Positions 10,192 to 59,294 of a DNA stretch of 64,000 nucleotides are shown here, piece by piece. The stretch is from Candidatus Saccharimonadota bacterium (lineage in GTDB: Bacteria > Patescibacteriota > Saccharimonadia > QS-5-54-17), in the NCBI GenBank assembly GCA_050486185.1, contig JBJHCT010000001.1, positions 178,866 through 242,865 of the forward strand, read 5' to 3'. The notes below the pieces were generated by a model. The model made no database searches. It was given only the letters and a program-made list of their open reading frames with translations, and was not told the DNA's origin. Positions within the stretch are counted from its first letter, which is position 1, and each line of letters opens with the position of its first letter. The position numbers and the translations under genes were made by a program.

Positions 10192-10202
10192 TAGCTATTT
10201 CT

Positions 10203-10478: not shown

Positions 10479-10547
10479 ATATTTACCTCTTAATTTAATC
10501 TTTCACTACATTATATCAAGCCTGGAGCTTCTAGGCTAAGTACGCTT

Positions 10548-12119
10548 CTATTCAGTTATGACGTAAAACAGTACTTTGCTTACTATGAGCTCCGAGAATC
10601 GCTTCTCTGCCTGGGCGGTATCTATCTCTAGCTTATCAGCTAAAACTAAAGACTCCTCATTCGCAGCTAATAGGATAGTTGCTTGATCTGATATATCTAT
10701 ACCATCTTCATAGTAGCTAACGTCAATATCACTGCGTTCAAACAGTAGATATTGAATCGGCAGCAGGCTTTGTTCATCAGCTATTACTAAATATTGCTGA
10801 CCTGCTTCTTCCTCTGGCTTTTCCTCTAATATATACTGAGCCATTTCATAGCTATGTTCATAACTAGCTTCGATTGCCTCTTTAGAGTTAGCCCAAGCTA
10901 CGAAGTAGAGGTTGTAGTTGTAAAAGGCGCTGAAACCTACCGATAGTACGATGATAGTAGCACCGATATGCCAAGCTACTACGTTGAATGGGAATACGCC
11001 GCGCCAACGCATTAGTAGTTCACTTAAACCAACTGCTGCTAATAGGTAGATAATCGGCATGGCTGGAGCTAACATTGTAGCGCTAGGAGCTAGCCCTGGC
11101 TCTAAAGTGACCGCTACTATTACAGTGATAGTTAGCAGGATGATTAAACTAGCGTAACGTAAGTTGCGCCATTTCGTAAAAGCTAGAATCAATCCCAGTA
11201 TGAAGAGAATACCGGTAAATGCATTTAAGTGAGCTGTTGTGGGTAGGTTAAACATATATGATGGATCGCCATTAATATGTAACATCATTAGCGTGCTCAA
11301 AAGAGCAGAGAACATATCAGTAAATCCAGTTAAACTAGCGTTAATGCCGCTACTAACTAGTGAGTAGATTGCCAGCGGTAGAGCCATAGCCATAGCTCCT
11401 AACAAAATGATAGCTAGCGGTTTATATACTCGTTTCAATCTATCTTTATGTACAAACCAGCTATAGGTTAATATAGCTAGAACAGATAACGGAATTATCC
11501 ATGTTAATGGATAGATATATAGACCTAGACCCGCTACTAGGCCGGTAGCTGTGTAATGTCTTGCCTTGTTGGTCTTAACCGCTATAGCTAGTAGCCACAT
11601 AGCTGTTGGTAGTATCAACATAGCTAGTGAAAAATCCATTCCCAGTCTGCTGATTTGAGCGGCCCAAGCCGAAGCTGCCATAAAGAATATAGCGATTAAG
11701 CCGGCTCTTTTGGAAAACCAGCTTTTAGCAGCTAGGTAGGTCATCACTACTACTACTATCGATAGTAGGGCCGGTATGATTCTCAGCATTAAGGCACTGG
11801 TGTTAGAAAATAGAGCCAACAGACTCTGTAGATAGATGAAGACTACTGAAGAACCCAATGCTCCTACCTCAGGAGCCATGAGGTTGCCAGACGCTATCTC
11901 TTTAGCTAGTAGCCCTATCTGGGCCTCTGCAGGGTAGATACCGACCGGCAATTGAGCTGATGGTGGCAATATTCCCCAGAGCCTAAATAGAGCAGCTACC
12001 ATCAAAGAGATAATTAGAATCGTCCACTCTCTATGATCTATCGCCCAATCCATGCCGGTTTCAACTAACCCTTGGGCTTTTTTAGCCAGGGTGGATAGTT
12101 GGTCAAACAATGTATTCAT
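10548..12119 (-). CDS. Polytopic membrane protein, GT-C-fold (ArnT/PMT-like) glycosyltransferase candidate
   Basis: About 12 predicted TM segments. The first-loop region resembles the ArnT/PMT motif area, but DE is replaced by AE (YPAEAQIGLLAKEIASGNLMAP). Confidence 0.35.
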   Translation of the reverse strand: MNTLFDQLSTLAKKAQGLVETGMDWAIDHREWTILIISLMVAALFRLWGILPPSAQLPVGIYPAEAQIGLLAKEIASGNLMAPEVGALGSSVVFIYLQSLLALFSNTSALMLRIIPALLSIVVVVMTYLAAKSWFSKRAGLIAIFFMAASAWAAQISRLGMDFSLAMLILPTAMWLLAIAVKTNKARHYTATGLVAGLGLYIYPLTWIIPLSVLAILTYSWFVHKDRLKRVYKPLAIILLGAMAMALPLAIYSLVSSGINASLTGFTDMFSALLSTLMMLHINGDPSYMFNLPTTAHLNAFTGILFILGLILAFTKWRNLRYASLIILLTITVIVAVTLEPGLAPSATMLAPAMPIIYLLAAVGLSELLMRWRGVFPFNVVAWHIGATIIVLSVGFSAFYNYNLYFVAWANSKEAIEASYEHSYEMAQYILEEKPEEEAGQQYLVIADEQSLLPIQYLLFERSDIDVSYYEDGIDISDQATILLAANEESLVLADKLEIDTAQAEKRFSELIVSKVLFYVITE

Positions 12120-15827: not shown

Positions 15828-16424
15828 TCATCGTGTCACCACTCTCCATCCAAAAACTCGCGTATTACCAGATGGATTATACAGTTCCAGTTTCATGCTC
15901 GATGCAGCCTTAGCTGCAAACAAAGCACTTAGGCCAAATGAGTCACCATTGGCGGCTGTACCATCAGACACTCGACCCAGCGATGAAGTAGTTCGATTTA
16001 TTGCCACTGTGTCATCAATCGTTAGGCGTACGCCTACACCAAAGCCCTGGATCGATCCACCAATCAGCTCAACTGGCACGGCAATATCAAAGATTGTGTG
16101 ATATGAGCTTGCTGATACTGACTGAGAAGTACCTTCGTGAAAGGTTAGCTCTCCTGCGTCTGCGGCTGTGATTGGTAGTACTACAGACTCCCCAATCTGC
16201 CCCTCAACCCATTGCTTATTAGCAACATCAGTGTCATTGACTGGATCTGCTACTTGCAATCTACCCCATTCATCATAGGCTGCTAGCCTACTACCTCCTG
16301 CTGTTGTTCCATCATGTACTCTAAGAGTTTTATTAGTAGTATCTACTGTAACTTCTCTAGCTGCTCCAGTGAAGCTATCGTTATCTGTATTACTACCACC
16401 TCTTAGTTGTACTTGGTCGGGCAT
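15828..16424 (-). CDS. Tail-fibre-repeat (HylP-type) paralog #1: conserved N-module plus unique C-terminal domain
   Basis: N-terminus MPDQVQLRGGSNTDNDSFTGAAREVTVDTTNKTLRVHDGTTAGGSRL matches the phage tail fibre repeat pattern QLR.GT...E...DT..L..GDG.T. The 5' ~230 nt are near-identical to four other loci. Confidence 0.7.
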   Translation of the reverse strand: MPDQVQLRGGSNTDNDSFTGAAREVTVDTTNKTLRVHDGTTAGGSRLAAYDEWGRLQVADPVNDTDVANKQWVEGQIGESVVLPITAADAGELTFHEGTSQSVSASSYHTIFDIAVPVELIGGSIQGFGVGVRLTIDDTVAINRTTSSLGRVSDGTAANGDSFGLSALFAAKAASSMKLELYNPSGNTRVFGWRVVTR

Positions 16425-16450
16425 AATCTACCTTTTTATATATAACCCTT

Positions 16451-16480
16451 ATACTAAACCAAATACTCTGGAGTAGTCAA
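16451..16480 (-). promoter_or_regulatory. Sigma70-like promoter of fibre paralog #1 (TTGACT-N18-TAGTAT)
   Basis: On the reverse strand: TTGACTactccagagtatttggttTAGTAT, then about 30 nt and an AAAAGGTAGA Shine-Dalgarno sequence before the ATG. Confidence 0.4.
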
Positions 16481-16487
16481 TTTTAAG

Positions 16488-16525
16488 ATCAAATAAAAAA
16501 ACCACTACCCTTTTAAAAGTAGTGG
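16488..16525 (-). terminator. Rho-independent terminator downstream of rplL
   Basis: Reverse-strand hairpin CCACUAC-loop-GUAGUGG followed by UUUUUUUAUUU, about 37 nt after the rplL stop. Confidence 0.6.
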
Positions 16526-16561
16526 TTAATTACCCCCTAACCCTAAAGAAGTTTTTTAGCC

Positions 16562-17020
16562 CTAGGCTAGCTCTACGCTAGCACCAGCTTCTTCTAGCTT
16601 AGCTTTGGCTTCTTCAGCTTCTTCCTTAGGCGCGTTTTCTTTAACTGCCTTTGGAGCGCCATCAACTATAGCTTTACTTTCAGCTAGGCCTAGTCCGGTA
16701 ATTTCACGAACTGCCTTGATGACGTTGATCTTGCTAGCACCAGCGTCAGTTAGAGTGATAGTAAACTCACTCTTTTCTTCTGCTGCGCCACCTTCAGCGT
16801 CTCCACCAGCTGCTGGAGCAGCGGCAACTGCCATAGGAGCAGCTGCTGATACACCGAAGTGCTCTTCTAGAATCTTAACTAGTTCGCTTAGATCTAGAGC
16901 GCTCAAGCTTTCTATATCTTTAACTATACTAGCAAACTTTTTAGGTATCTCTACCTTAGTTTCTTCTTTAGTCTCTTTAACTTCCTTAGTATCTTTAGTT
17001 TCTTTCTTATCTTCTGCCAT
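16562..17020 (-). CDS. rplL: 50S ribosomal protein L7/L12 with Lys/Glu-rich N-terminal extension
   Basis: ...[22 protein letters not shown]...[22 protein letters not shown]... is a conserved L12 core. It follows rplJ. Confidence 0.9.
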
Positions 17021-17048
17021 TTTAATCTCCTTATTTCTTAGTATTAAA

Positions 17049-17573
17049 TTAACTTTTAGCTTGGGCCGCTTTATCTAGTACTGTAACTAGACCTCGCAAG
17101 TTGCCCGATAGTACACCAACAAAGCCAGATAGTGGCGCGGCGATAGTGCCAACAAGCTGAGCTTGCAACACTTCTTTGGCCGGTAGATCAGCTAGTCGCT
17201 TGATCTCCTCAGCCGATAGTACTGTTCCTTGATCATCTATAGCCATGATCGGCTTTAGACTCTCATGTTTCTTGGCGTGTTCTGAGATAGTTTTAGCTAC
17301 TGCAACTGGATCGTTGTAGCCAAAAGCCATAACTACTGGGCCCTCTAGCTCGGATAGGTCCACATCTTTATGGGTTTCAGATACGGCAATCTTCAACATA
17401 GCGTTTTTAACTACTCTGAAGTTACCGCCTTGTTCCTTGATGGCCTTTCGAAGATTCTGAGAATCTTCTACAGATAGGCCGGTGTAGCTAGATAGAACAC
17501 TTAGACTGCTTTTGCTAAGCTCATCTTTGATATCGGCTACTTGAGCCTCTTTTGCTTGTCTGGATATAGCCAT
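17049..17573 (-). CDS. rplJ: 50S ribosomal protein L10
   Basis: L10-like sequence, immediately upstream of rplL. Confidence 0.85.
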
Positions 17574-25519: not shown

Positions 25520-26885
25520 CGAATGGTTCCGGGTTGCCTTGCATCTCGAAAGTTCCCGCGTCGAGGTCACAGACGATAAGCACGGTCATGGTGTCCTCCT
25601 ACGGCTCGATTGGATAGCGGATGTAGGCGACCCCGCGTCCACCGCGACCCGAAAAGGGACCTGTGTTACCAGCCGCACCGCCGCCACCTGCGCCTGTACC
25701 ATGCGTTCCGGCACCGCCTGTGGGAGACGCATCGCTACCTCCTGCGCCGCCGCCGCCAGCACCACCGGCACCGCCAGCATCACGACCGCCCCCGCCGCCG
25801 CCACCGCCGCGAATGACGCTCGACCCGGTGAAGTCGGATGACTCCCCGGCCCCACCGGCACCACCTGTCGTCCACGTCGGGCCGTTCGCCCCCGCCGCCG
25901 AGGTTCCACCGCCACCGCCGCCCGAGTCGTCAGCCGAGCCGTCGCCACCGTCGTTCCCTTGACCTGATGATCCACTGCCCCCGGTTGAACGAGATGCTCC
26001 ACCGCCTCCTGAACCTCCTGAGCCACCAACCTGCTGCCCCGAACCAAAAGTACCCCCACCACCGCCGCCACCAGTTGCAGTCACACCCGCAAACGTCGTG
26101 TTCGAGCCTGCATTACCTCGCCCACCGCCGGTTACACCGGCACCTTCTGCACCGACCACCACGGGGTAGACGGAAGCCGCGACCGGGACACTGCCCGTGC
26201 GCCGACCACCGGCACCGCCACCGCCACCGCCACGGATACCCGAAGATCCGCCACCAGCGCCGCCTCCAGCGACCAGGTAATACTCGACTTCTTCGTCCGT
26301 ACCCGGATCTAGAACCGTAAAGTTGGCTGACCCCGCCGCCGCGAACGTATGAAGCCTATACTGCCGACCGTCGATGGTGATGGTCGACTCGGTGCCGCCA
26401 GTTGCCGAGACAGAAACCCACACATCAGACGCAATGATCCCGCGACGAAGCAGCCGCATCAGGTGACCGCCTGTGCGCCGGTCATAACCCACTCGTTCGT
26501 AGCGTGCTTCGTGAGCACCGCCGTGCCGTACCGGTCGAGCGTCCCCGCTAGACGAACCGTAACCCCAGAGCCACCCACGACGGTCACGCCACCTGCACCG
26601 GCCGCATAGACCTCGATCACACTGCCCACCACAAACGCGACCGACGAGTTAGGCGGGACAGTGACAGTCACCGCGGCGGTATTGGTGAACCGCTTGACCG
26701 TCCCCGCGTCGGCCAGGGCGAGTGTGTAGGTCGTGCCCGATTCGTCAGAGAGCGCGACAGACGCGACAGAGTCGCCAATCTGTCCATCTACGTAGCCCTT
26801 GTTGGCGATATCAGCATCATCGACAGGATCGGCTACTTGGGCGCGACCCCACTCGTCATAGACTAGGAGCTTATGCCCACCAGCT
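25520..26885. other. About 1.36 kb strongly GC-rich island of foreign composition (by eye roughly 65-70% GC vs ~40% flanks; not computed)
   Basis: An abrupt shift to GCC/GGC/CCG-dominated sequence. The low-GC sequence resumes at ~26885 inside fibre paralog #2, and at ~25520 inside a 30-codon ORF. Confidence 0.8.
25599..26459 (-). CDS. Glycine-rich protein resembling minor tail proteins of actinobacteriophages
   Basis: Has ...TITIDGRQYRLHTFAAAGSANFTVLDPG...YYLVAGGGAGGGSSG, then long poly-Gly tracts, ending VAYIRYPIEP. A start at 26459 gives a TGATG stop/start overlap with fibre #2. The ORF track shows an alternative start at 26492. Other ORFs in this region are GC-mirror artefacts. Confidence 0.5.
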   Translation of the reverse strand: MRLLRRGIIASDVWVSVSATGGTESTITIDGRQYRLHTFAAAGSANFTVLDPGTDEEVEYYLVAGGGAGGGSSGIRGGGGGGAGGRRTGSVPVAASVYPVVVGAEGAGVTGGGRGNAGSNTTFAGVTATGGGGGGGTFGSGQQVGGSGGSGGGGASRSTGGSGSSGQGNDGGDGSADDSGGGGGGTSAAGANGPTWTTGGAGGAGESSDFTGSSVIRGGGGGGGGRDAGGAGGAGGGGAGGSDASPTGGAGTHGTGAGGGGAAGNTGPFSGRGGRGVAYIRYPIEP

Positions 26886-27007
26886 GTTGTTCCATCATGT
26901 ACTCTAAGAGTCTTATTAGTAGTATCTACTGTAACTTCTCTATTAACGCCAGTAAAAGCATCGTTCTCTGCTTCGGTTCCACCTCTTAGTTGTACTTGGT
27001 CTGGCAT
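26459..27007 (-). CDS. Tail-fibre-repeat paralog #2: chimeric, with low-GC conserved N-module fused in frame to a high-GC C-terminal domain
   Basis: First ~40 codons are nearly identical in nucleotides to the other paralogs. From ...HDGTTAGG|HKLLVYDEWGRAQ the protein stays homologous (DEWGRAQVADPVDDADIANKGYVDGQIGDSV), but the DNA becomes GC-rich. Confidence 0.7.
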   Translation of the reverse strand: MPDQVQLRGGTEAENDAFTGVNREVTVDTTNKTLRVHDGTTAGGHKLLVYDEWGRAQVADPVDDADIANKGYVDGQIGDSVASVALSDESGTTYTLALADAGTVKRFTNTAAVTVTVPPNSSVAFVVGSVIEVYAAGAGGVTVVGGSGVTVRLAGTLDRYGTAVLTKHATNEWVMTGAQAVT

Positions 27008-33269: not shown

Positions 33270-33932
33270 TTAGGTCGTGATTCCTAAATCAACTACCATC
33301 TGCCAGACTGGGCGTACAGGATCCCCTACAGTGAAGGTTCCAACAGCAGGATTCCCGCGTGTCTTGAGCGTCATAGGTGAACCTGTCCCTACAAAAAGAT
33401 GTTCACAATAGGCAGAAACATTGCCCGATGCATTTGCGGCGTTATAGATTGCGACTTGCTGTTGGCCGTTCGATCCGTTAGTGATAGTCATATTGCCGCG
33501 ACCAGCAGTTGATCCGGTTAGGACTACCGCGAAAGCCCGATAGGCATATAGGCGGCCAGTCTCGGTATTAAACGTGAACTCAGAGCCAACTAAATCGACA
33601 GAGGCTCCTTCTGAAACAATCTGTTGTGTAGTACGAATATTAAACGCAAATCCTCCTGTACCCCCAGATGTTGCAGATACTACACCGTCGGGCTTGGGAG
33701 TAATAACCCCATCCACATAGCTCTTGTTAGCTACATCAGTGTCATTAACTGGATCTGCTGTTTGCAGCCTACCCCATTGATCATAAGCTGCTAGTTTACT
33801 TCCACCTGCTGTTACTCCATCATGTACTCTAAGAGTCTTATTAGTAGTATCTACTGTAACTTCACGTTGTGCTCCTGTGAAGTTATCATTATCTGTGCTG
33901 CTTCCACCTCTTAGTTGTACTTGGTCGGGCAT
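33270..33932 (-). CDS. Tail-fibre-repeat paralog #3 (real start at the MPDQVQLRGG Met, not the longer track ORF)
   Basis: Conserved N-module; unique C-terminal ~140 aa (jelly-roll-like, GC-richer). An upstream TTGTCT-N17-TATTAT promoter-like element is present. Confidence 0.7.
   Translation of the reverse strand: MPDQVQLRGGSSTDNDNFTGAQREVTVDTTNKTLRVHDGVTAGGSKLAAYDQWGRLQTADPVNDTDVANKSYVDGVITPKPDGVVSATSGGTGGFAFNIRTTQQIVSEGASVDLVGSEFTFNTETGRLYAYRAFAVVLTGSTAGRGNMTITNGSNGQQQVAIYNAANASGNVSAYCEHLFVGTGSPMTLKTRGNPAVGTFTVGDPVRPVWQMVVDLGITT
33727..33863. repeat. Arm 1 of a ~137-nt near-identical inverted repeat (5' coding module of paralog #3)
   Basis: About 3 mismatches to the reverse complement of 34976..35112. 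Confidence 0.7.
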
Positions 33933-34068
33933 AGTGTGTTTACTACCTTTTATAGAATTATATATCATAAGCATAATACTAAATTTATTACTGTTAGACA
34001 ATCTAAAATAAAATCTATCAAACTACTTCTATGGAGTTTGATAGTAAGTTGGTTATAATATTGTCTGT

Positions 34069-34143
34069 GCCCTGATAGCTCAGTGGTAGAGCGCTTCCAT
34101 GGTAAGGAAGAGGTCGCGAGTTCAATCCTCGCTCAGGGCTCCA
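34069..34143 (+). tRNA. tRNA-Thr (anticodon GGU)
   Basis: GCCCUGA acceptor, D-arm AGCUCAGUGGUAGAGC, anticodon loop AUGGUAA, T-arm GAGUUCAAUCCUC, CCA. Confidence 0.8.
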
Positions 34144-34217
34144 TATTAAAATAAATAGTTTTTGCTATAATCAGAAGCTGTTAGTATTCGTTTCTTTCCT
34201 GATGATACAATTATTAC

Positions 34218-34628
34218 ATGTCCCTATGTAAGAATTGCAGTACAGGATTAAACAGATTATCTAGTGTTTATTGTTCTAATAAATGCCAGAAAAATTACGA
34301 ATATGCTACGTACATTAAAAAGTGGAAACAAGGTAAAGTTACTGGTAGCAGAGGGGTTGATGCTAAGAATATTTCTAGGCATATTGTTAGATACCTAATC
34401 AGCAAGTATGAAGGTAGATGTGTAGAATGCGGCTGGAACAAGCTTCATCCAGTTACAGGTAACGTTTTACTAGAAGTAGATCATATAGATGGTGACTCGG
34501 ACAATAATCAGGAAGAGAATTTGCAGTTATTGTGTCCAAATTGCCATTCACTTACTAGTACATACAAAAATCTTAATAATGGTATGGGCAGAGAATGGAG
34601 AAGGTCTAAGTATATAAAATCTTCTTAG
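34218..34628 (+). CDS. HNH endonuclease with N-terminal zinc ribbon
   Basis: CKNCSTG...CSNKC ribbon, and the HNH core CVECGWNKLHPVTGNVLLEVDHIDGDSDNNQEENLQLLCPNCHS. Confidence 0.85.
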   Translation: MSLCKNCSTGLNRLSSVYCSNKCQKNYEYATYIKKWKQGKVTGSRGVDAKNISRHIVRYLISKYEGRCVECGWNKLHPVTGNVLLEVDHIDGDSDNNQEENLQLLCPNCHSLTSTYKNLNNGMGREWRRSKYIKSS

Positions 34629-34636
34629 TGTTTTTT

Positions 34637-34712
34637 GCCACCTTAGCTCAGTTGGTAGAGCAACGCTCTTGTAAAGCGTAGGTCGTCGGTTCGAGCCCGA
34701 CAGGTGGCTCCA
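34637..34712 (+). tRNA. tRNA-Thr (anticodon UGU)
   Basis: GCCACCU acceptor, anticodon stem ACGCU/AGCGU with loop CUUGUAA, T-arm GGUUCGAGCCC, CCA. Confidence 0.8.
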
Positions 34713-34728
34713 TAAATAACATACATAT

Positions 34729-34815
34729 GCCAGGGTAGCGAAGCGGCCAAACGCATCTGACTGTAAATCAGACGGCTTCATGCCTTCGGGGGTTCGAATC
34801 CCTCCCCTGGCACCA
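34729..34815 (+). tRNA. tRNA-Tyr (anticodon GUA), long variable arm
   Basis: GCCAGGG acceptor, anticodon loop CUGUAAA, extended variable arm, T-arm GGUUCGAAUCCC, CCA. Confidence 0.8.
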
Positions 34816-34821
34816 CATAAT

Positions 34822-34851
34822 TTGACTGTTGTGCCCTAACTACCCTATTAT
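34822..34851 (+). promoter_or_regulatory. Promoter of paralog #4 (TTGACT-N18-TATTAT)
   Basis: TTGACTgttgtgccctaactacccTATTAT. The AAAGGTAGA Shine-Dalgarno lies 8 nt before the ATG. Confidence 0.4.
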
Positions 34852-34906
34852 CTAAGAATAACCAGTATTTATACTTTTTTTATATAACCAAAGGTAGATA
34901 ATAATC

Positions 34907-35587
34907 ATGCCCGACCAAGTACAACTAAGAGGTGGTACAGAAGCAGAGAATAATAACTTCACAGGAGCAGCCAGAGAAGTTACAGTAGATACTACTAATA
35001 AGACTCTTAGAGTACATGATGGAGAAACAGCAGGAGGAAGTAAACTAGCAGCTTATGATCAATGGGGTAGGCTGCAAACAGCAGATCCAGTTAATGACAC
35101 TGATGTAGCTAATAAGCAGTGGGTTGAAGGGCATGTTAGTGGTGCTGCTACTCGTCGCGCACTTGTGATTCGCGATGATGTTCAAACAATCCCTAATGCC
35201 ACCACTACAGCAATGATATTCCAGACAGAGGTTTATGACGACGATGGCATGTTTGATATCGGATCACCAACCATGCTTGTTGTGCCATCCGGTGCGTCGA
35301 AAGTACGTGTGTCCGCTAGCGTGGTATGGGGAAGTAATGCAGACGGTCTGCGACAAGCGTTTATTGAACGCGACACTGGTGCAGGATTTACTGCGAGCTA
35401 TAACGGAGTAGCCCGGTTCGCAATGGACCCCGGGACTTCCAATCAGGCTTACTGGACAATGGCGACTGCCTGGATTGCATGTGATCCAGGTGATAAGTTT
35501 CAATTAGCTGTGCATCATACACGAGGAACCACTCTGCAAATGCAAGGCAGTGGTCTAACATGGATGATGATGGAGATATTAACATAA
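34907..35587 (+). CDS. Tail-fibre-repeat paralog #4
   Basis: Conserved N-module (MPDQVQLRGGTEAENNNFTGAAREVTVDTTNKTLRVHDGETAGG). Unique GC-richer C-terminal ~150 aa. Confidence 0.7.
   Translation: MPDQVQLRGGTEAENNNFTGAAREVTVDTTNKTLRVHDGETAGGSKLAAYDQWGRLQTADPVNDTDVANKQWVEGHVSGAATRRALVIRDDVQTIPNATTTAMIFQTEVYDDDGMFDIGSPTMLVVPSGASKVRVSASVVWGSNADGLRQAFIERDTGAGFTASYNGVARFAMDPGTSNQAYWTMATAWIACDPGDKFQLAVHHTRGTTLQMQGSGLTWMMMEILT
34976..35112. repeat. Arm 2 of the ~137-nt inverted repeat (5' module of paralog #4)
   Basis: Near-identical to the reverse complement of 33727..33863. Confidence 0.7.
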
Positions 35588-41205: not shown

Positions 41206-41592
41206 TTAAGTTGGCGTTGGAGCCTTATTTTTCGCACCACCAACTGTCATTCTCTTGCCTCGTTTAGTTCTAGCGTTGGTCTTGGTTCTTTGTCCTCGTA
41301 CCGGTAGTCCTGCTTTGTGTCTCATACCTCTGTATGAGTTGATTTCTCGAAGACGAGAAATACTAACTCTAATACGTTGAGCAAGATCTCCCTCAACTTC
41401 GTAATCTTTATCGATAATTTCACGGATCTTACTTAGCTCTGTTTCTGATAAATCTTTGATTCTGACATTCTCATCTACTTTAGCTTTAGCTAGTATCTTT
41501 TGAGAGTTTGCTCTACCAATGCCGTAAACGTATGTCAGCGCAATAACTGCTCTTTTATCATCTGGAATGTTAACTCCTGCTATTCTAGCCAT
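41206..41592 (-). CDS. rpsM: 30S ribosomal protein S13
   Basis: [14 protein letters not shown] start is typical of S13. Confidence 0.9.
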
Positions 41593-41595
41593 TTT

Positions 41596-41709
41596 TTATC
41601 CTTGCCTCTGCTTATGTTTAGGGTTTACGCATATAACACGCACCACGCCCTCACGGCGAATAACTTTGCATCTGGCGCAAATCTTCTTGACGCTAGCTTG
41701 AACTTTCAT
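41596..41709 (-). CDS. rpmJ: 50S ribosomal protein L36
   Basis: Translating the reverse strand by hand gives [37 protein letters not shown] (37 aa). Missed by the ORF track. Confidence 0.85.
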
Positions 41710-41727
41710 ATTAAGCGTTTAAACCCC

Positions 41728-41949
41728 TTATTTATGTCTATAGGTGATTCTGCCCTTCTCTAGATCGTAAGGTGTCATTTCAACTGTCACCTTGTCCCCG
41801 GGCACAATCTTGATGTAGTGCATTCTCATTTTTCCAGCAATAATGCCTGTTATCTCGTGTCCGTTTTCTAAACGCACACGAAACATTGCGTTTGGCAACG
41901 TTTCTAGAATTGTTCCTTCAAATTCTACAACCTGCTTTTTGCTGGCCAT
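41728..41949 (-). CDS. infA: Translation initiation factor IF-1
   Basis: 73-aa S1-like OB protein; [15 protein letters not shown] is typical of IF-1. Confidence 0.9.
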
Positions 41950-41980
41950 AAGCTACAAGACTCCATTATAAGTAGTGGAC

Positions 41981-41998
41981 AGGGGTTTGTAAACCCCT
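41981..41998. repeat. Copy 1 of an 18-nt GC hairpin AGGGGTTTGTAAACCCCT
   Basis: Identical 18-mer recurs at 59277..59294. It folds as AGGGG-loop-CCCCU. Confidence 0.6.
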
Positions 41999-42206
41999 AT
42001 TTCACAACTTTTTTTATTTGTATTAATTAGCACTATATCACTAGTGGTAGGGATTTGCAAGGATATTAGTTTTGGATAAGCAAAGAATATGTGCTTAATT
42101 AATATCTGGAAATCTTGGATTTGAATAGTGATTACTCTAACGCAACACTCCTGGATCTCTCGCTAGAAGGAGGGTAATACCGTTATTGTTGGCATTTAAA
42201 CCACCA

Positions 42207-42866
42207 CTACATCTTCTCTGCAACAACAGTAATTACCCGATTCCTAAAAGTACTAGTGGCCGAAGATGTCGCATACTTTGCGGTAAACGTAGTAGTACCG
42301 GGGTTCAGCCCGCTAAGCAAAAACGTTCTGGAAGCCGTACCATGTCCTGACCCGGCCCAGGAATTCCCTATAGCACTACGGCTTTGCGCTGTCAGCCCTC
42401 CCCAAGTATCCCCAGCGGCGTATGTATTTGTTCCAGTCGCTGCAAGGTTCATTGACGTCACAACACCAGCACCCGAACCCCACATAAAGGCACTCAGCGA
42501 TACCAGGACTTTACCAGATGCTGGTACGTCGATTTCAATAGAAGGACCAACAGTGGCTAAATCAGTAAAAGATGTGCTAGTGGTTGACTCTTGTGCTGCT
42601 GTTTCTGAACCCTCGAAGCTTATTCCAGACTCTTCAACCACCCCATCTACATAACTCTTGTTAGCTACATCAGTATTATTGACTGGATCTTCTACTTGCA
42701 GCCTACCCCATTCATCATAAGCTGCTAGTCTACTTCCTCCTGCTGTTTCTCCATCATGTACTCTAAGAGTCTTATTAGTAGTATCTACTGTAACTTCACG
42801 GCTTACTCCAGTGAAGCTATCGTTATCGTTTGCTGTACCACCTCTTAGTTGGACTTGGTCGGGCAT
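42207..42866 (-). CDS. Tail-fibre-repeat paralog #5, inserted between secY and infA
   Basis: Conserved N-module. Unique Ser/Thr/Gly-rich, GC-richer C-terminal ~140 aa. Confidence 0.7.
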   Translation of the reverse strand: MPDQVQLRGGTANDNDSFTGVSREVTVDTTNKTLRVHDGETAGGSRLAAYDEWGRLQVEDPVNNTDVANKSYVDGVVEESGISFEGSETAAQESTTSTSFTDLATVGPSIEIDVPASGKVLVSLSAFMWGSGAGVVTSMNLAATGTNTYAAGDTWGGLTAQSRSAIGNSWAGSGHGTASRTFLLSGLNPGTTTFTAKYATSSATSTFRNRVITVVAEKM

Positions 42867-42912
42867 GGTGTTAGTTACTCTTTCTAAATCCTTATGGATT
42901 ACTGTTGTCTTT

Positions 42913-42942
42913 ATATTAGGTTAGTAGAGTAGGTTTAGTCAA
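42913..42942 (-). promoter_or_regulatory. Promoter of paralog #5 (TTGACT-N18-TAATAT)
   Basis: Reverse strand: TTGACTaaacctactctactaaccTAATAT, then a UTR shared with paralog #2. Confidence 0.4.
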
Positions 42943-42948
42943 CGCTAT

Positions 42949-44256
42949 CTACTTATAACTAGCGTTAATAATCTGTGAGTCGATTTGGCGCAAGCTTTCG
43001 ATACTAACACTGACTACAATCAATAGCCCTGTACCACCAAAGGTTAGAGCTTGTGATCCGGTGATGTATTCACCTATAAAGGGCAGTACAGCTATAAAGC
43101 CTAGGGAGATAGCTCCAAAGAGAGTAATCCTATTAACGATCTTCCTTAGATACTCCTCTGTTTGTTTACCGGGCCTAATACCGGGTATAAAGCCGCCTTG
43201 TTTTTGCAAGTTCTCAGCAATGTCGACTGGATTGAAGACTATACCGGTATAGAAGTAAGTAAAAGCTACTACTAAGCCAAAGTAGGTGAAAGCATAGATC
43301 ATATTGGATGGATCAAACCATACAGTTAAGTTAGTAGCTAGTGTTGCTAGCCAAGCTGCATCGGCATTAGCTAGAATCTGACCGATAAAGGCCGGTAAGG
43401 ACAGGAAGGCTACTGCAAATATGATTGGGATTACACCGGCCGTTAGAATACGGATAGGAAGCTCTGATTCCACCCCGCCATAGCCGCTGTTTTGCATCCG
43501 CTTAGCATAGGAGACTTTAACGATTCTCCTAGCCTCATTGAGCTTAACGATATAGTAAGTGATGATGAGCGAGGCGATTACAAAGAAGCCGACCTGCAGA
43601 ATTTCAGTAGTTGAGGCTTGAACTATCGAAACAGCCTGACCGAAGACACCTGGCAATTGAGCGATGATAGAGGCGGCAATCAATATAGATATACCATTAC
43701 CTACACCCTTCTCACTAATTAACTCACCCATCCACATCAGTAGCATCGAACCGGCCACCATAACTGTAATCATCAACACCCACTCATAGGCACTAGGATT
43801 ACCAATAATATCGGTCTGGCCCACCTGGATAGCTAATTGTCTAATAAAGAAGACGGTACCGATAGATTGGCCGATAGCTAATGGCAAGGTTAGATACCGA
43901 GTATATTGATTGATCTTGCGTCTACCCTCTTCACCCTCTTTTTTCAACTCCGAGAACTTTGGCACCACCTGGGTAAGTATCTGCATGATAATTGAGGCAT
44001 TAATATATGGGCCTAGACCCATTAGAGCAATCGAGAAGTTCGCTACCGCACCACCGGAAAATAGATCAACTAAGCCAAATAGACGATTGCTAGATAGTAG
44101 ATCAGTTAAAAAGTTACTTAAAGTCGCACTATCGGCAAAAGGAATAGGTACATGGGCCATAATCCTGTAGATTAATACCATAAAAAAGACCGCTAGGATT
44201 TTGTTACGTAAATCCTTATTGGTTAAAACGGATTTGAGTATCCTGTTGCCCTCCAT
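42949..44256 (-). CDS. secY: Preprotein translocase subunit SecY
   Basis: 10-TM protein with conserved SecY blocks. Follows rplO. Confidence 0.9.
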   Translation of the reverse strand: MEGNRILKSVLTNKDLRNKILAVFFMVLIYRIMAHVPIPFADSATLSNFLTDLLSSNRLFGLVDLFSGGAVANFSIALMGLGPYINASIIMQILTQVVPKFSELKKEGEEGRRKINQYTRYLTLPLAIGQSIGTVFFIRQLAIQVGQTDIIGNPSAYEWVLMITVMVAGSMLLMWMGELISEKGVGNGISILIAASIIAQLPGVFGQAVSIVQASTTEILQVGFFVIASLIITYYIVKLNEARRIVKVSYAKRMQNSGYGGVESELPIRILTAGVIPIIFAVAFLSLPAFIGQILANADAAWLATLATNLTVWFDPSNMIYAFTYFGLVVAFTYFYTGIVFNPVDIAENLQKQGGFIPGIRPGKQTEEYLRKIVNRITLFGAISLGFIAVLPFIGEYITGSQALTFGGTGLLIVVSVSIESLRQIDSQIINASYK

Positions 44257-52606: not shown

Positions 52607-53656
52607 CTATTTCCACTTACCTATAGCTGCATAACCTATTATAGTTTCTGTGCCAGAAGCCCTCTGATTGACATCTATACCCCTGATCGAAATGCTAGTG
52701 GTGGATATAGCGCTGACGGTGCCCCATGAAGCACTAGTACCCCACTTAAAGACAGTGGTTAGAGGTGTTGGGGTTTCAGAAAATTGCTGGGGGAAGGTGT
52801 ACGCCCTAACACCTTGGTAGAGACTACCGTAGGCGTTGTCAATGCTTTGATCGGTCACGGTTTCGACCTTGTGAATAATCATAGTTCCATCAGACCATTT
52901 CACCCAATTACCATTACTATCAGAACCGGACTCTACAACGGGAGCACCATTAGATACTAGGCCCCCTGCAACTACAGTACCGCTAAACTCTACTTCGCTA
53001 GTGCTGTGATCAACCGCTATAACATCTTCATCTTTTTGATAGTTCCATAACCTAATATCACTACTGGGCTGATCAAGATACCATAGCCATTTGCTCTCTG
53101 ATGAATCAGCTAGAGCAAAGCCGTGATAACTTGATGATCTGACCCGAATGTGCCCGCCCAAAACATCGAATATAGTGTTGGAGCTATTTGTACCTGGATT
53201 AACATTATTAACCCCTATCCTGCCCCCAGAATCTATATACAATCTGGCTTGAGAGTCTACGCCATCCCATATATATAAATCTCTAGTATTGTTACCGTTG
53301 TAGTCGGTGCCTATATTAAACCGGCCGGCACCTTGTTGTCTGAATTTAATTTCGCTATCCATACGAGTAGCAGAGTCTTTATCTATAGTGATGCCGCCCC
53401 AGTTATCGTTATGACGAACATGCAGCTTTGTTCCCGGAGTATCTGCGCCTATACCTACCCTACCATCTAATCTATAGATATCGTTCCCGCTAACTACCCA
53501 TGAAGACAGAGAAGAAGGCGTTATCCAGGCAGTATCATAATCATTAATAGAATCCTTGGCTAAAACATCACCACTAGCACCGCCAGCCGGAATGCCTTTC
53601 CCACCACCACCTCCTAGCGGCACCAACTCGCCATTTTGTTTTATCCAACGTGTCAT
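52607..53656 (-). CDS. Tail-fibre-like beta-rich protein (S10-operon cassette gene 5)
   Basis: GDVLAKDSINDYDTAW near the N-terminus, and the fibre-associated RVGIGADTPGTKLHV motif. No signal peptide. Confidence 0.55.
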   Translation of the reverse strand: MTRWIKQNGELVPLGGGGGKGIPAGGASGDVLAKDSINDYDTAWITPSSLSSWVVSGNDIYRLDGRVGIGADTPGTKLHVRHNDNWGGITIDKDSATRMDSEIKFRQQGAGRFNIGTDYNGNNTRDLYIWDGVDSQARLYIDSGGRIGVNNVNPGTNSSNTIFDVLGGHIRVRSSSYHGFALADSSESKWLWYLDQPSSDIRLWNYQKDEDVIAVDHSTSEVEFSGTVVAGGLVSNGAPVVESGSDSNGNWVKWSDGTMIIHKVETVTDQSIDNAYGSLYQGVRAYTFPQQFSETPTPLTTVFKWGTSASWGTVSAISTTSISIRGIDVNQRASGTETIIGYAAIGKWK

Positions 53657-53746
53657 TTTGTTGATTATTATACTCTCTTAGTAATACCTATAGATTAGCA
53701 CAAGCATATATCAGTCTCAAAAAAACACACAAACATTTAGCTAATG

Positions 53747-54526
53747 CTAAGTAGGCACTGCATCTACTCTATAATAGAGCCCCGTCTTCTCACTGTCACT
53801 ATCATTTAGGGTACCGGCCTGTCCTGTTAAGTTAAAATTAAAACTGTGAGTGCCGGAATTGAGAACTACCATGCCAATCCCAGCGGTTGTGCGCACGTGA
53901 CTATCACCTGTATTAACAGGCATAGCTACTCTTCTTATACTATTTCCATTAACTAGGGCATCGATATAAAACCAGCTAGTGGTTGTAGCACCACTGGGCC
54001 TTGCTGAAACGTTGAAATCCACGCTCAAAACCGCATTAAAGGGTAGCTCTATTTCTATATCTGTACTAAAAAAGTTAGTACCCCTATCCCAAGTACCTTT
54101 TGCAGCCTGGTCTTGAGCTAGAGTTAGAGCAACGTTATTGGCTCTAATCCATCCATCAACATCTAGCCTAACTTGCGGGTTTTCCACTCCTATACCTACT
54201 GAGCCGCCGCCGCTAGGCATAATCTTGATATCTTCACCCGCACCAGAAACAATGTTGTGACCGTTAACGTCTAAGTCACCTCCCAGTTGTGGCGAGTCAT
54301 CCTCCACTAATTTAGATATAGTACTCATACTATTAACTGTCCCTGCAACTTCATCTATTGCAGACTTAACATCTGTAGCGAGTAATCCTGATTCAGTATT
54401 GTCGTATGAAAGACTACTTATATCAATGCTAGCTTCAGATAAATCTATGGTGCCATCTGGATGCAAGACTATATTAGAATCCATAGCATCGGGATGCTGT
54501 ATTTTTGTAGTCTTAACGGTACTCAT
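53747..54526 (-). CDS. Tail-fibre-like protein (cassette gene 4)
   Basis: N-terminus ...KIQHPDAMDSNIVLHPDGTIDLSEASIDISSLSYDNTESGLLATDVKSAIDEV is paralogous to cassette gene 3. Has the SVGIGVENPQVRLDVDG motif. Confidence 0.55.
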   Translation of the reverse strand: MSTVKTTKIQHPDAMDSNIVLHPDGTIDLSEASIDISSLSYDNTESGLLATDVKSAIDEVAGTVNSMSTISKLVEDDSPQLGGDLDVNGHNIVSGAGEDIKIMPSGGGSVGIGVENPQVRLDVDGWIRANNVALTLAQDQAAKGTWDRGTNFFSTDIEIELPFNAVLSVDFNVSARPSGATTTSWFYIDALVNGNSIRRVAMPVNTGDSHVRTTAGIGMVVLNSGTHSFNFNLTGQAGTLNDSDSEKTGLYYRVDAVPT

Positions 54527-54532
54527 ACTTAA

Positions 54533-55408
54533 TTAACCTTCTAGCCAAAAGCCCCTAGTATAAATATTCTCCACCCAGGGTTGCCAACCACCCGAGTAAG
54601 CCCATATATAGAACCTACCCTCGGAATCCGTCTCTACATCATACTCTATACCCCATCTATCCACACCCACCCCCTGTATAGCAGGGGCATGGGAGGTCCA
54701 AGCATTCCCCGTAGTTGGATCGCCAAATGGTTTAGTCATCCAAAGCATTCCCGAAGCGCCAAGTCTTCTGGTAACTATATATAATTTTACCGCACCTATA
54801 CGACCAATTACTCCCTGTGGCAAGTGCTGACTCATATCTATTAGCTGTGGGCTGGTCGATAGTGGATTTTGTGTAAATATACTACTGGAAGCTAAAGGTG
54901 ATGATTTATCTAATCTATAGTATGCTCCTAGAGCTTTATAGTTAGAGAACTGTTCGTATCTAATGTTGTCGCCAACCCTCACCTCTCCATCAACATGCAG
55001 ACTGGCTTGTGGGTCATCTGTACCTACACCCACCCTGTTATCTGTAGTATTTACGCTAATAGTAGGGGTTTGGCCATCTGAAACCTTGAAAGCTTCAGTG
55101 TTGTTAGTGGCAACATCAACAGGGCCACTAAAGCTAGCCCCATCTAACGGGGCCTTTTTACTATCTAACTCATCGATTGCTTCCTTAACATTGTTTGCAC
55201 TAACAGTAGAGTTGGTATTGTCATAAGTGATACTGCTATTAGTGTCGATATTAACATCAGAGATATTGACCTTGCCGTCTTGATTGAAGGTAATATTGGC
55301 ATCTACAGCTTCAGGGTGTTTAATTGATGTAGTTTTAATTTCCCCAGTTTCTACAGTATTGGTATCCACTACATCACTAATTATTCTATTGGCCTTTATA
55401 TCAGACAA
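54533..55408 (-). CDS. Tail-fibre-like protein (cassette gene 3)
   Basis: ...SIKHPEAVDANITFNQDGKVNISDVNIDTNSSITYDNTNSTVSANNVKEAIDEL, with the RVGVGTDDPQASLHVDG motif. Confidence 0.55.
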   Translation of the reverse strand: MSDIKANRIISDVVDTNTVETGEIKTTSIKHPEAVDANITFNQDGKVNISDVNIDTNSSITYDNTNSTVSANNVKEAIDELDSKKAPLDGASFSGPVDVATNNTEAFKVSDGQTPTISVNTTDNRVGVGTDDPQASLHVDGEVRVGDNIRYEQFSNYKALGAYYRLDKSSPLASSSIFTQNPLSTSPQLIDMSQHLPQGVIGRIGAVKLYIVTRRLGASGMLWMTKPFGDPTTGNAWTSHAPAIQGVGVDRWGIEYDVETDSEGRFYIWAYSGGWQPWVENIYTRGFWLEG

Positions 55409-55511
55409 AATAACACCTCTTTATACTTAATTTTAATTAGGAGTTAAAACTACTAATACATATATACTACGCAAGCTACAAACAAGGTGTCAAATCAGTC
55501 ACGCTTAGGTA

Positions 55512-57281
55512 TTATCCCACTCTACCTAGTAATATGGCTACTTCGCTATCTACTGGCCACGGATTAAATTTACAACCCTGCAAGTCTATAGACTGTTGCA
55601 ACATCACTGGAGCCGGTGCTCCTGGAGTAGGGCAGTTTAGATGACCAAAGCCAAGTAGGTGACCGGCTTCATGATTGACCACCATATGACGGTAATCTCG
55701 CAAATTCCCACCGGCCTCATTCCAAGAAGGTGTAGCATTTCTCCACCTAACATCATTAATAATGACATCTCTACCGACTCGGCAACTATACTCTGCTGAG
55801 CAGAGAGTAGAGAAACTAGTCAGCTGATCAGCTGCTGCCAGCCAGATAGTGAAATCACTCACACCACTATCTACTCTGCGGAATCCTACGTCACTTCTAG
55901 ACCATCCTCGGCTATCACCTAGAGTTTGGGCAACCAATACTGCAAACTCATTAATATCAGCTACTGTATCCCCTCTAGTAGCGATATTGTAGGTCAATAC
56001 TAAGCTAGGACTTTTAATGCAATACTCTATAGAGCCCTCACCTAGTTCTACCTCGTCTGATTTAGCTGATATAGCTAATATGTAGCATTGATCTTCCAAA
56101 AAACTACCATCTACTACCCCTGATAGATTTACACTTAGTCTATCCTCGCTATTGAGGCTATCTAGTTGATTTGTATCTAAGGACATTCTTTCATCTATAC
56201 TTAGTGGCTGTTGATCACTATCGACAACAAGCTCTAAAGATTTAATAGTTGGCCCGCTTTTATGCAGCATAATATCAATACTTAACTCATCTCCAGATGA
56301 AACCTCTACAGAGCTGGTTGAGATCTCTAAATCTAGAGAAGACTCCTGGGGGTAGGCAAAAACTAACAAAGTTTCTGAGCCGACATATGGAGCATATACA
56401 GAAGCAGCCGAGAGACGTAAATCAAAACTATGACCTCTAATGACGTCTAAGATATTGGTGGTAGCAAAATCACTGTGCCACTCAGTAGAGCAATTTATGC
56501 TTCTTGGACAGTTATCACTAACAAATTGATACCCTGCACCCTTACTGGGTAGACCCTCATCAGTTTGAGTAGTAATATCACCACACTCTAGGTAGTTGAT
56601 ACACCACAGCTGATGAGACTCATCTTCATTGATAATATCTACACTACCTCCATCATCGACCCAAACAGCCGCCTTGTCGGCAAAATCACCATAAACCGGT
56701 GTCTCAAGATCTAAATTAGTATTCGCTATATCGATACTAAAGGGGTTTAATCTACTTAAGAGTGATGGCTTTTTAATAAACTTGGGAGACTTAGAGCTAG
56801 TAATGTCTTGGTTTAGATTTGGTACTCCTAATCTTACGTATTCTGCCCTAGCGCCGCTGTAGCGATATTGATCTGACAGTAAGTCTATAGTTTCATCAAT
56901 ATCACTACTACAAGCATGCTCACCACCGGTAGCTATATAAGTTGGCTCTTCTTCGATAGTCAGAGGCTTGTTAATATCATCTGCTTTGCCGTAAAGACTG
57001 AAGCTTCTAACTTGGTAATGCATTCCCTCTTGATTCCAGATCTCTGAGTCACTCTCATCATTACTACCATCGCTACTTTCTTCACCACCATCCCAGGAAG
57101 CGACTACATCACCATAGGAGACCTGGCACTGAGAATAATTAACATCAGCTATTACTGGATAACTAAACCACCAATAACCCCAAGAGGCTGTAGCTACTGC
57201 CAAGATACTCACAAGAGATATCAGTAGAGTCTTTGGTGAAGTTACTAGTTGCTTCATCCAAGCTCGGATTAATTTCATCAA
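55512..57281 (-). CDS. Membrane-anchored/secreted metzincin-type zinc metalloprotease
   Basis: N-terminal hydrophobic anchor. C-terminal HEAGHLLGFGH (HExxHxxGxxH) followed by a Met-turn-like APAPVM. Confidence 0.7.
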   Translation of the reverse strand: MMKLIRAWMKQLVTSPKTLLISLVSILAVATASWGYWWFSYPVIADVNYSQCQVSYGDVVASWDGGEESSDGSNDESDSEIWNQEGMHYQVRSFSLYGKADDINKPLTIEEEPTYIATGGEHACSSDIDETIDLLSDQYRYSGARAEYVRLGVPNLNQDITSSKSPKFIKKPSLLSRLNPFSIDIANTNLDLETPVYGDFADKAAVWVDDGGSVDIINEDESHQLWCINYLECGDITTQTDEGLPSKGAGYQFVSDNCPRSINCSTEWHSDFATTNILDVIRGHSFDLRLSAASVYAPYVGSETLLVFAYPQESSLDLEISTSSVEVSSGDELSIDIMLHKSGPTIKSLELVVDSDQQPLSIDERMSLDTNQLDSLNSEDRLSVNLSGVVDGSFLEDQCYILAISAKSDEVELGEGSIEYCIKSPSLVLTYNIATRGDTVADINEFAVLVAQTLGDSRGWSRSDVGFRRVDSGVSDFTIWLAAADQLTSFSTLCSAEYSCRVGRDVIINDVRWRNATPSWNEAGGNLRDYRHMVVNHEAGHLLGFGHLNCPTPGAPAPVMLQQSIDLQGCKFNPWPVDSEVAILLGRVG

Positions 57282-59166: not shown

Positions 59167-59276
59167 ATTTAATACTCCTTATTGGATTTTAATTGATATA
59201 GTAATATTTTTGCTAAATATTTGCATGCGAAATACGCACACGATTTATCATCAGTTTAGAATTATACTTTAGCCCC

Positions 59277-59294
59277 AGGGGTTTGTAAACCCCT
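59277..59294. repeat. Copy 2 of the 18-nt GC hairpin AGGGGTTTGTAAACCCCT (fusA-tuf spacer)
   Basis: Identical to 41981..41998. Confidence 0.6.

Follow-up and report, generated by a model that had tools for sequence, protein, structure and literature searches.

The closest described counterparts of ORF219, a gene for a fibre-like protein of 219 aa located between secY and infA of a saccharibacterial genome, are receptor-binding proteins of phages and the adhesive fibres of Bdellovibrio. The gene lies in the 64,000-nt stretch of Candidatus Saccharimonadota DNA analysed here (contig JBJHCT010000001.1 of assembly GCA_050486185.1; hereafter the window). Mtd of phage BPP-1, the founder of the Pfam family Mtd_N, is a receptor-binding virion protein of 381 aa which carries its specificity in a C-terminal C-type-lectin tip diversified by a retroelement. 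Minor tail proteins of actinophages, e.g. those of the Mycobacterium phages Cuke, Angel and Leo (family 7565 of the PHROG database), are long proteins of the virion whose genes belong to tail modules. In Bdellovibrio, the MAT fibres combine an invariant N-terminal domain with swappable tips, among them TNF-like and C-type-lectin folds, and one such fibre was shown to bind prey glycans (PMC10769870). MAT fibres are about 600-1100 aa long and surface-displayed, and they form long trimeric β-prisms or β-helices; their N-terminus is not reported as Mtd_N. TNF-like jelly rolls also occur in lectins and protein heads such as the N-terminal domain of BC2L-C, PLTL, C1q and the C-terminal domain of Pgp3. 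As regards bacteria of the candidate phyla radiation (CPR), a preprint on Pam pili in the saccharibacterium Mycosynbacter reports that an uncharacterised 'tail fibre-like protein' is consistently encoded beside the pam operon across CPR genomes (10.64898/2026.03.03.709456). No study linking Saccharibacteria with Mtd, or characterising tail-fibre-like proteins in them, was found in the literature searched.

The organism was placed in the Saccharibacteria/Saccharimonadales by its SecY homologues, 80 of which came from Saccharibacteria (46-93% identity). By SecY identity its best relatives are the loci designated L006 (93%) and L001 (86%). ORF219 is read here, with moderate confidence, as a modular phage-derived trimeric adhesin cassette for host or surface recognition.

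Domain architecture and predicted fold of ORF219

ORF219 is intact. Its parts are as follows.

42207-42866, minus strand: ORF219, coding sequence of the fibre-like protein (paralog 5), 219 aa; recognised by its open reading frame (ORF), Pfam Mtd_N, PHROG, AlphaFold2 and homologues
42744-42854, minus strand: Mtd_N domain, aa 5-41; PF18454 and profile match to 1yu0
42639-42728, minus strand: fibre neck motif, aa 47-76, LAAYDEWGRLQVEDPVNNTDVANKSYVDGV; similarity among the paralogs ends at the neck
42210-42623, minus strand: C-terminal tip, aa 82-219, predicted TNF/C1q-like β jelly roll; supported by the predicted local distance difference test (pLDDT) score, Foldseek, phage protein P0002 and similarity to phage tail proteins

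The N-terminal region passed the Pfam model Mtd_N (PF18454) with 40.4 bits against a cut-off of 26.3 (2.7e-10) over the whole 37-position model, and all five paralogs found in the window scored above the Pfam gathering score for this domain. A profile made from the family alignment matched Mtd of the Bordetella phage (1yu0) at 1e-15. By this relationship, the domain would act as a docking or trimerisation module. It is followed by the neck (GRLQVEDPV..D.ANKSYVDG), which is also visible by eye in the phage protein P0002.

AlphaFold2, supplied with a 61-sequence alignment, gave a model with a mean pLDDT of 83.6, the values being 86-98 over aa 81-219, which form an all-β domain. Foldseek searches of the PDB matched the tip with Pgp3, PLTL, BC2L-C, C1q, a cyanophage short tail fibre and Bd2734 of Bdellovibrio; no C-type-lectin match was seen for the tip with AlphaFold2 and Foldseek. 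The tip is thus confidently predicted to be a TNF/C1q-like jelly roll. The matches to the TNF-like lectins and heads had E values of 2e-5 to 5e-4 and target TM-scores of 0.45-0.58. Sequence identity to these proteins is only 10-15%, and a binding of carbohydrates by ORF219 may be supposed from the common fold.

Searched against predicted viral structures, the model had phage proteins from Actinoplanes, Streptomyces and Arthrobacter phages among its top named matches. At the sequence level, aa 90-214 matched positions 762-878 of the 882-position profile of PHROG 7565, 'minor tail protein', at 1.9e-25. The tip also matched the C-terminal ends of proteins from 103 isolated phages, 85 of which are Mycobacterium phages; in the latter, the matched gene mostly carries the annotation minor tail protein. 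When 1.84 billion representatives were searched exhaustively with HMMER, 4827 matches were obtained at E <= 0.001. In the best 150 of these 4827 (123-1519 aa) the tip nearly always ends a few residues from the C-terminus, and the full-length combination of Mtd_N and tip was found among these 150 only in P0001, P0003 and P0004, all from metagenome-assembled genomes (MAGs) of Saccharimonadales. The two tip homologues whose gene context was inspected sit in siphovirus tail modules, with tape-measure and distal-tail genes on one side and the endolysin gene on the other. As judged by these similarities, ORF219 is a fibre-like protein with the two-module architecture of phage receptor-binding proteins.

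Each of the described systems resembles ORF219 in part. With Mtd it has in common a homologous N-terminal domain, and in both the C-terminal part would carry the specificity of a receptor-binding protein. In contrast to Mtd, ORF219 is short (219 aa), ends in a TNF/C1q-like tip and is chromosomal, with several dispersed copies; self-blast and Pfam scans of the window revealed neither template or variable repeats of a diversity-generating retroelement (DGR) nor a reverse transcriptase. The ends of the actinophage minor tail proteins are 36-44% identical to the tip and exhibit the same signature TTSTSFTDLAT...TFTAKY. However, ORF219 is not a whole-length member of PHROG 7565: the terminal domain alone is in common, and ORF219, a cellular gene, joins it to Mtd_N. 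The neighbours of ORF219 are secY and infA, in a window without phage structural genes. The likeness to MAT fibres is one of logic, i.e. a constant base with a variable TNF-like tip in many paralogs of a bacterium living off bacteria; five paralogs were found here, and the tip of Bd2734 (8okw) is among the fold matches. Unlike MAT fibres, the proteins described here are 180-370 aa long and leaderless and belong to another phylum, and 219 aa leave no room for a long shaft. The resemblance to MAT fibres is best regarded as an analogy and not as membership.

A paralog family with a constant 5' module

The first-pass annotation of the window had placed a fifth fibre paralog in the secY-infA gap. 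This assignment holds: exactly five genes of the window, ORF219 among them, have the first ~80 residues in common. The contig of 264.5 kb harbours at least nine family members including these five. The other paralogs in the window and the promoter-like sequence of ORF219 are located as follows.

15828-16424, minus strand: paralog 1, directly downstream of rplJ-rplL; recognised by the shared N-terminal module
26459-27007, minus strand: paralog 2, with a GC-rich tip like Gordonia-phage minor tail proteins; GC content at third codon positions (GC3) 0.77 in the tip vs 0.34 in the 5' module
33270-33932, minus strand: paralog 3, conserved ATG at 33932; shared N-terminal module
34907-35587, plus strand: paralog 4, with a tip like Staphylococcus, Caulobacter and cyanobacterial phage tail proteins; shared N-terminal module
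42913-42942, minus strand: promoter-like sequence TTGACT-N18-TAATAT of ORF219; 9/12 consensus match, same hexamers in register in front of paralogs 1, 2 and 4

Paralog DNA is 76-91% identical from the ATG to about +220 nt (~73 codons) and drops to background thereafter, the tips being unrelated. When the window was compared with itself by blast, these 5' modules (210-300 nt) and one pair of AI-2E transporter genes were the only repeats. The -35 and -10 hexamers are in register in all five paralogs, and their flanks have diverged in all but one pair: paralogs 2 and 5 are 88% identical over the 73 nt that precede the ATG. A hairpin in the 5' untranslated region common to these two paralogs (AATCC-N4-GGATT) did not exceed shuffled sequence in stability (z -0.77).

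The promoter-like sequence of ORF219 begins 6 nt past the secY stop codon. Five promoter-like sites were found in the 2-kb region versus 4.2 expected by chance, so that the single site is not significant; it is credible because its hexamers are conserved among the paralogs, not because of its score. An own promoter, as the first-pass annotation had proposed, can therefore be retained, yet the attribute 'strong' cannot, given a chance-level match of 9/12. The pattern TTGAC[AT]-N16-18-TAnnAT occurs seven times on both strands of the window, four times directly upstream of fibre paralogs. Two further occurrences are at the insert in the S10 region, one just upstream of the gene at 54533-55408 and the other past the last insert gene, upstream of rplC.

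This S10-region insert (52607-57281) consists of four genes between rpsJ and rplC. The C-terminal end of the first gene product (52607-53656) matches a PHROG tail-fibre family at 3.4e-20. The products of 53747-54526 and 54533-55408 appear fibre-like by eye and have an N-terminal motif in common, and that of 55512-57281 combines an N-terminal membrane segment with a DUF3152 domain and a HEAGH motif. Promoters of the consensus TTGACA type are present at 55493-55464 and 52589-52560.

Family members are found at other core loci as well. Within the window, one paralog follows rplL and one lies upstream of nusG. In the related Saccharimonadales MAG GCA_040904145.1 (L091), a member with Mtd_N and Gly_rich_2 domains (10001-10969) is located between ftsI and mraY, and a second one (16330-17370) adjoins the gene for an 884-aa VirD4/TraG-like coupling protein. 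Tips of the family on the contig include glycine-rich domains and two C-type-lectin-like ends. The latter belong to P0034 and P0035, Mtd_N proteins of 364-367 aa encoded outside the window, which by eye end in ...GFRVAWYA, a C-terminus typical of DGR targets of the C-type-lectin/FGE-like kind; the genome may hold a DGR that acts on members of the family.

Through their 5' modules, paralogs 3 and 4 provide an inverted repeat of 229 nt with 91% identity (33723-35116), which surrounds a segment of ~940 bp that holds a tRNA-Thr gene, an HNH endonuclease gene (34218-34628) and genes for another tRNA-Thr and a tRNA-Tyr. Homologous recombination between the repeats would allow inversion of this segment.

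Relationship of the tips to actinophage proteins

The closest phage relative of the ORF219 tip is P0002, which is 75% identical to aa 69-217; at the DNA level, identity is 70% over 381 nt. Its gene directly follows the portal gene of a phage that is present on several metagenomic contigs. Compared with Streptomyces phage Faust, this phage has a portal protein with 48%, a major capsid protein with 49% and a protease with 33% identity, and adaptor, endolysin and gene order agree. The GC content of Faust (0.466) was judged the same as that of the P0002 phage, which is 0.48 in comparison with 0.42 for the genome studied here. Of the nearest named relatives of the phage capsid, that of an Actinobacteria MAG is 65% identical and those of Streptomyces phages are 51% identical; none is from Saccharibacteria. 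By these homologies, the phage appears to belong with Streptomyces phages. A second connection concerns its Collar-domain fibre (L081:940-2208), the last 197 residues of which are 49% identical to the product of a window gene at 6333-7148 (271 aa, Phage Tail Collar domain, 1e-26). The Mtd-like C-type-lectin protein of the same phage shows no sequence similarity to P0034 or P0035.

With a GC3 of 0.40, the ORF219 tip is typical of its genome, and a recent import of this tip was ruled out on that ground. The P0002 tip has a GC3 of 0.65 versus about 0.42 in its phage. Since the P0002 tip is foreign in its phage and the ORF219 tip genome-typical, the direction of transfer could be either way. In L081:8001-8878, both the P0002 gene and the next small gene have a GC3 of 0.58-0.65, as compared with about 0.42 in the rest of the phage. 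The two genes are located between portal and protease, where Faust has a small 'membrane protein' gene, and in the phage, too, the region has the appearance of an accessory insertion.

The tip of paralog 2 matches minor tail proteins of Gordonia phages, and the difference in GC3 between this tip and its own 5' module points to a recent import from a high-GC source. Together with an overlapping Gly_rich_2 gene, the tip occupies a GC-rich island at 25599-26800 (up to 0.61 per kb vs 0.42 for the window) just upstream of nusG-rplK-rplA, which as a whole looks recently acquired from such a source. The Gly_rich_2 protein (297 aa; gene GC 0.67) matches PHROG 2295 at 1.9e-39; no phage match was obtained for it, probably as a consequence of low-complexity masking.

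Insertion of ORF219 between secY and infA

The genes around ORF219 form a minus-strand array in the order rplO, secY, ORF219, infA, rpmJ, rpsM, rpsK, rpsD, rpoA and rplQ. The coordinates of the insert and of its two neighbours are listed below.

42949-44256, minus strand: secY, last gene of the upstream spc-type unit; ORF with 80 homologues
42053-42947, minus strand: lineage-specific insert comprising promoter, gene and a 154-nt 3' tail; delimited by blastn against L006 and by the L001 gap
41728-41949, minus strand: infA, first gene of the downstream unit (infA-rpmJ-rpsM-rpsK-rpsD-rpoA-rplQ); ORF, located by tblastn in 68 loci

The blastn alignment with L006 ends 3 nt past the secY stop codon and restarts 103 nt upstream of infA, which delimits an insert of 895 bp relative to L006. 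In L001 the whole secY-infA gap measures 164 bp, and neither this locus nor L002-L005, which together are the next five closest relatives (72-86% SecY identity), have a gene in it. The gap of L006 is 1.4 kb long and contains a 225-aa fibre-like gene on the opposite strand, which has only the 30-residue neck motif in common with ORF219 (50% identity). A full-length homologue of ORF219, P0004 (43% identity by BLASTP, 98% query coverage), is encoded elsewhere in the MAG of L006, next to a gene for a 626-aa sortase-domain protein. ORF219 at the secY-infA site is a lineage-specific insertion. The first-pass annotation had named, besides adk and map intact elsewhere, an unrelated gene or none in close relatives as the sign of a random, lineage-specific insertion without expression; half of this was observed, namely the lineage specificity.

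In the canonical spc/alpha junction, e.g. that of Bacillus subtilis, the gene order is secY-adk-map-infA-rpmJ-rpsM. Flanking genes and their order are retained at the locus studied here (rplO-secY on one side, infA-rpmJ-rpsM-rpsK-rpsD-rpoA-rplQ on the other), and the first-pass annotation had concluded that the fibre gene took the place of adk and map. To compare synteny, rplO, secY, infA and rpsM were located by tblastn in 80 secY loci of Saccharibacteria (GTDB species representatives), 68 of which hold both secY and infA. In all 68 loci, the next gene recognised downstream of secY is infA. The gap has a median length of 208 bp and ranges from 79 to 281 bp in 46 loci, where neither adk nor map would fit. 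Neither gene was found between secY and infA at any of the 68 loci, or anywhere in the 80 secY loci at E <= 1e-4, although divergent copies in the flanks could escape this threshold. In the window, searches by tblastn with Adk and Map of E. coli and Pfam scans of 40 non-ribosomal ORFs did not reveal them either. The absence of adk and map from the secY-infA site is a class-wide trait of the sampled Saccharibacteria and not a peculiarity of this genome, and ORF219 therefore displaced neither gene. The synteny comparison thus contradicts the proposed replacement.

Gaps of more than 400 bp between secY and infA were counted in 22 of 68 loci, as compared with 15 of 71 for the rplO-secY spacer and 4 of 67 for the infA-rpsM interval. 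Inserts in the secY-infA gap are unrelated between clades; assigned to families by eye, they include sortase-like genes, a copper ATPase together with a small regulator-like gene, a phosphoesterase-like gene and several genes for hypothetical proteins. The secY-infA spacer is a recurrent landing site in Saccharibacteria. One clade (L035, L036, L043, L045, L046, L053 and L060) carries an insert of 3.8 kb (about 7374-11164 in L036) coding for a copper-type P-type ATPase of 748 aa, a small protein that resembles a regulator and has a tail rich in Cys and His, and, on the opposite strand, a membrane-anchored protein, all as judged by eye. In L023 and L080 the gap holds a sortase-like gene.

The infA promoter and its palindrome

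The two signals upstream of infA are located as follows.

41965-41993, minus strand: infA promoter TTTACA-N17-TATAAT; 11/12 consensus match, kept in L001 and L006
41981-41998, minus strand: palindrome or hairpin AGGGGTTTACAAACCCCT, 18 nt; overlaps the infA -35 hexamer

The best promoter-like site of the region is that of infA. It is conserved with equal spacing in L006 and L001, both of which lack the ORF219 insert. As infA has its own conserved promoter, the secY-infA site is a boundary of two transcription units and not the interior of one. The earlier view that the fibre gene is embedded in the ribosomal superoperon is therefore valid in a physical sense, as ORF219 lies inside the ribosomal array and the S10-region insert contains at least one fibre-like gene, but not with respect to the operon, the boundary of which it occupies. 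No intrinsic terminator was predicted after secY or after ORF219.

The -35 hexamer of infA falls within the palindrome AGGGGTTTACAAACCCCT, which is kept upstream of infA in L006. An identical 19-mer was found between fusA and tuf (59276-59294) with the same TTTACA-N17-TATAAT layout (tuf site, 59260-59294), and a pattern search of the window returned two sites for the hairpin, those of infA and tuf. The GC-rich hairpin that the first-pass annotation had described as following the fibre gene is present, yet it is not a separate element. It is part of a promoter type for highly expressed genes and marks the start of the infA unit, not the end of the fibre element. Possible roles of the palindrome are that of an operator, or that of a 3'-end hairpin combined with a promoter of highly expressed genes. 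At the infA position of L001, another hairpin with both arms changed can be drawn by eye. All in all, the sequence features of the first-pass annotation are real, whereas its main interpretation, i.e. displacement of adk and map and a hairpin following the fibre gene, is wrong.

The 257-nt spacer between ORF219 and infA (41950-42206) has a predicted folding energy of -58.9 kcal/mol (z -3.05; none of 200 shuffled sequences was as stable) and no Rfam match. Its distal ~100 nt correspond to the conserved infA leader and promoter, and the proximal 154 nt are found in this genome alone. An Rfam search of 41400-43400 yielded nothing in the insert. A sub-threshold match to Alpha_RBS was obtained at 41560-41614, across the 3' end of rpmJ and the first part of rpsM (27.1 bits vs a gathering score of 38, E 0.001).

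Possible origin and role of ORF219

We propose that promoter and coding sequence of ORF219 form a self-contained cassette whose protein would derive from phage receptor-binding proteins. Its constant 5' module would comprise the promoter hexamers and ~73 codons, with a switch to differing tips at the neck motif. The cassette would have landed at the boundary between the spc-type unit, of which secY is the last gene, and the infA-alpha unit with a promoter of its own. Transcription would start at the cassette's own promoter and probably also involve read-through from secY, since no terminator is predicted between secY and ORF219. Solved structures show Mtd_N and TNF-like heads (Mtd; TNF/C1q family) as trimers, and for this reason the proteins may be expected to trimerise. 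The constant N-terminal module would dock onto a common partner, and the variable tip would bind a glycan or receptor on a surface, most likely that of an actinobacterial host of the epibiont, because the matches of those two tips whose phage relatives are closest are actinophage proteins.

Several points weigh against this proposal. Neither a signal peptide nor a transmembrane segment was found in the five paralogs, which also weakens the analogy to MAT fibres, and no docking partner of Mtd_N was identified. Trimer formation, binding, export and expression are each inferred, and so, by homology, is the host of the P0002 phage. The actinophage pattern is incomplete: the tip of paralog 4 matches proteins of Staphylococcus, Caulobacter and cyanobacterial phages, and for the tips of paralogs 1 and 3 no matches in isolated phages were obtained. 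Finally, the window covers 64 kb, and a phage-tail-like gene cluster may exist elsewhere in the genome.

A wider version of the adhesin proposal is put forward tentatively and is in our opinion doubtful. It sees the family, in this organism and in related Saccharimonadales, as a toolkit of small trimeric adhesins in which tips taken from phages of the actinobacterial host would be mounted on the Mtd_N adaptor, so that the epibiont would find its host by means of these phages' receptor-binding domains; host range would change by swaps at the neck, and cassettes would reside at core-operon boundaries. Genomes of this class measure about 1 Mb, and such boundaries would be among the few safe and well-expressed intergenic sites in them.

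If the fibre gene had instead replaced adk and map in the ribosomal superoperon and were co-expressed with ribosomal genes, its position between secY and infA without a predicted terminator after secY would be expected, and it would be a second instance of fibre genes purposely placed in that operon. The locations of paralogs after rplL and upstream of nusG, the fibre-like insert between rpsJ and rplC, and the member of the family in the dcw cluster of a relative would fit as well. Nevertheless, this explanation is improbable, for all 68 loci lack adk and map at the site (median gap 208 bp), the insert is absent in L001-L005, and the gap of L006 holds a different gene in opposite orientation. 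Moreover, infA starts from its own conserved promoter at an operon boundary, every paralog has its own promoter, and in a small genome and a window rich in ribosomal operons such proximity is expected by chance. The phage-type nature of both protein halves, the 75% identical tip in a phage and a position that is not conserved even in the closest relative might rather indicate a functionless, decaying phage leftover (moron or prophage fragment) persisting in a tolerant intergenic spot. However, Pfam scans of the window revealed no integrase, capsid, portal or tail gene, and self-blast no repeats flanking the gene, so that it does not qualify as a prophage remnant. Its ORF is intact and the fold confidently predicted; there are five intact paralogs with conserved 5' module and promoter, related MAGs retain several intact copies, and the tip GC3 of 0.40 matches the genome and not a recent arrival. 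We therefore consider a leftover quite unlikely.

The missing signal peptides would be accounted for if the fibres were supplied in trans to a tail-like particle or resident phage (tailocin, contractile injection system or an entity like a gene transfer agent) and released by lysis. Their Mtd_N, homologous to that of the BPP-1 receptor-binding protein, would then dock as Mtd does on BPP-1, and P0034 and P0035, with C-type-lectin ends of the DGR-target type, are encoded on the same contig. This scenario is unlikely, though somewhat less so than a leftover, as the 64 kb contain no genes for tail, sheath, baseplate or tape-measure proteins, the fibre genes are scattered one by one under promoters of the housekeeping type and do not cluster with structural genes, and genomes of ~1 Mb leave little room for such a cluster. 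Very improbable, finally, is a role as an anti-phage decoy masking the cell's own receptors, or in recognition between Saccharibacteria cells. The 75% identity of the tip to a phage protein would be in line with it, and a phage GC content of 0.48, close to the 0.42 of the genome, does not strictly bar a saccharibacterial host. On the other hand, structural genes and gene order place the phage with Streptomyces phages (GC 0.47), the nearest named relatives of its capsid are linked to Actinobacteria, and ORF219 has no export signal. We know of no case in which a chromosomal family built in this way serves as a decoy.

Implications for host recognition in Saccharibacteria

With regard to adk and map, the present results amount to a correction: the short secY-infA spacer is ancestral in the class and a recurrent insertion site, and does not reflect gene replacement. 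The Mtd_N family represents a variation on a known fibre design and a candidate host-recognition system in Saccharibacteria. Pili have been implicated in the recognition of specific hosts by ultrasmall CPR epibionts. The family provides concrete and testable host-range candidates, some with tips close to actinophage proteins, in parallel to the repertoire of Bdellovibrio. Hosts of uncultured Saccharibacteria might thus be predicted by matching their fibre tips to those of phages with known hosts.

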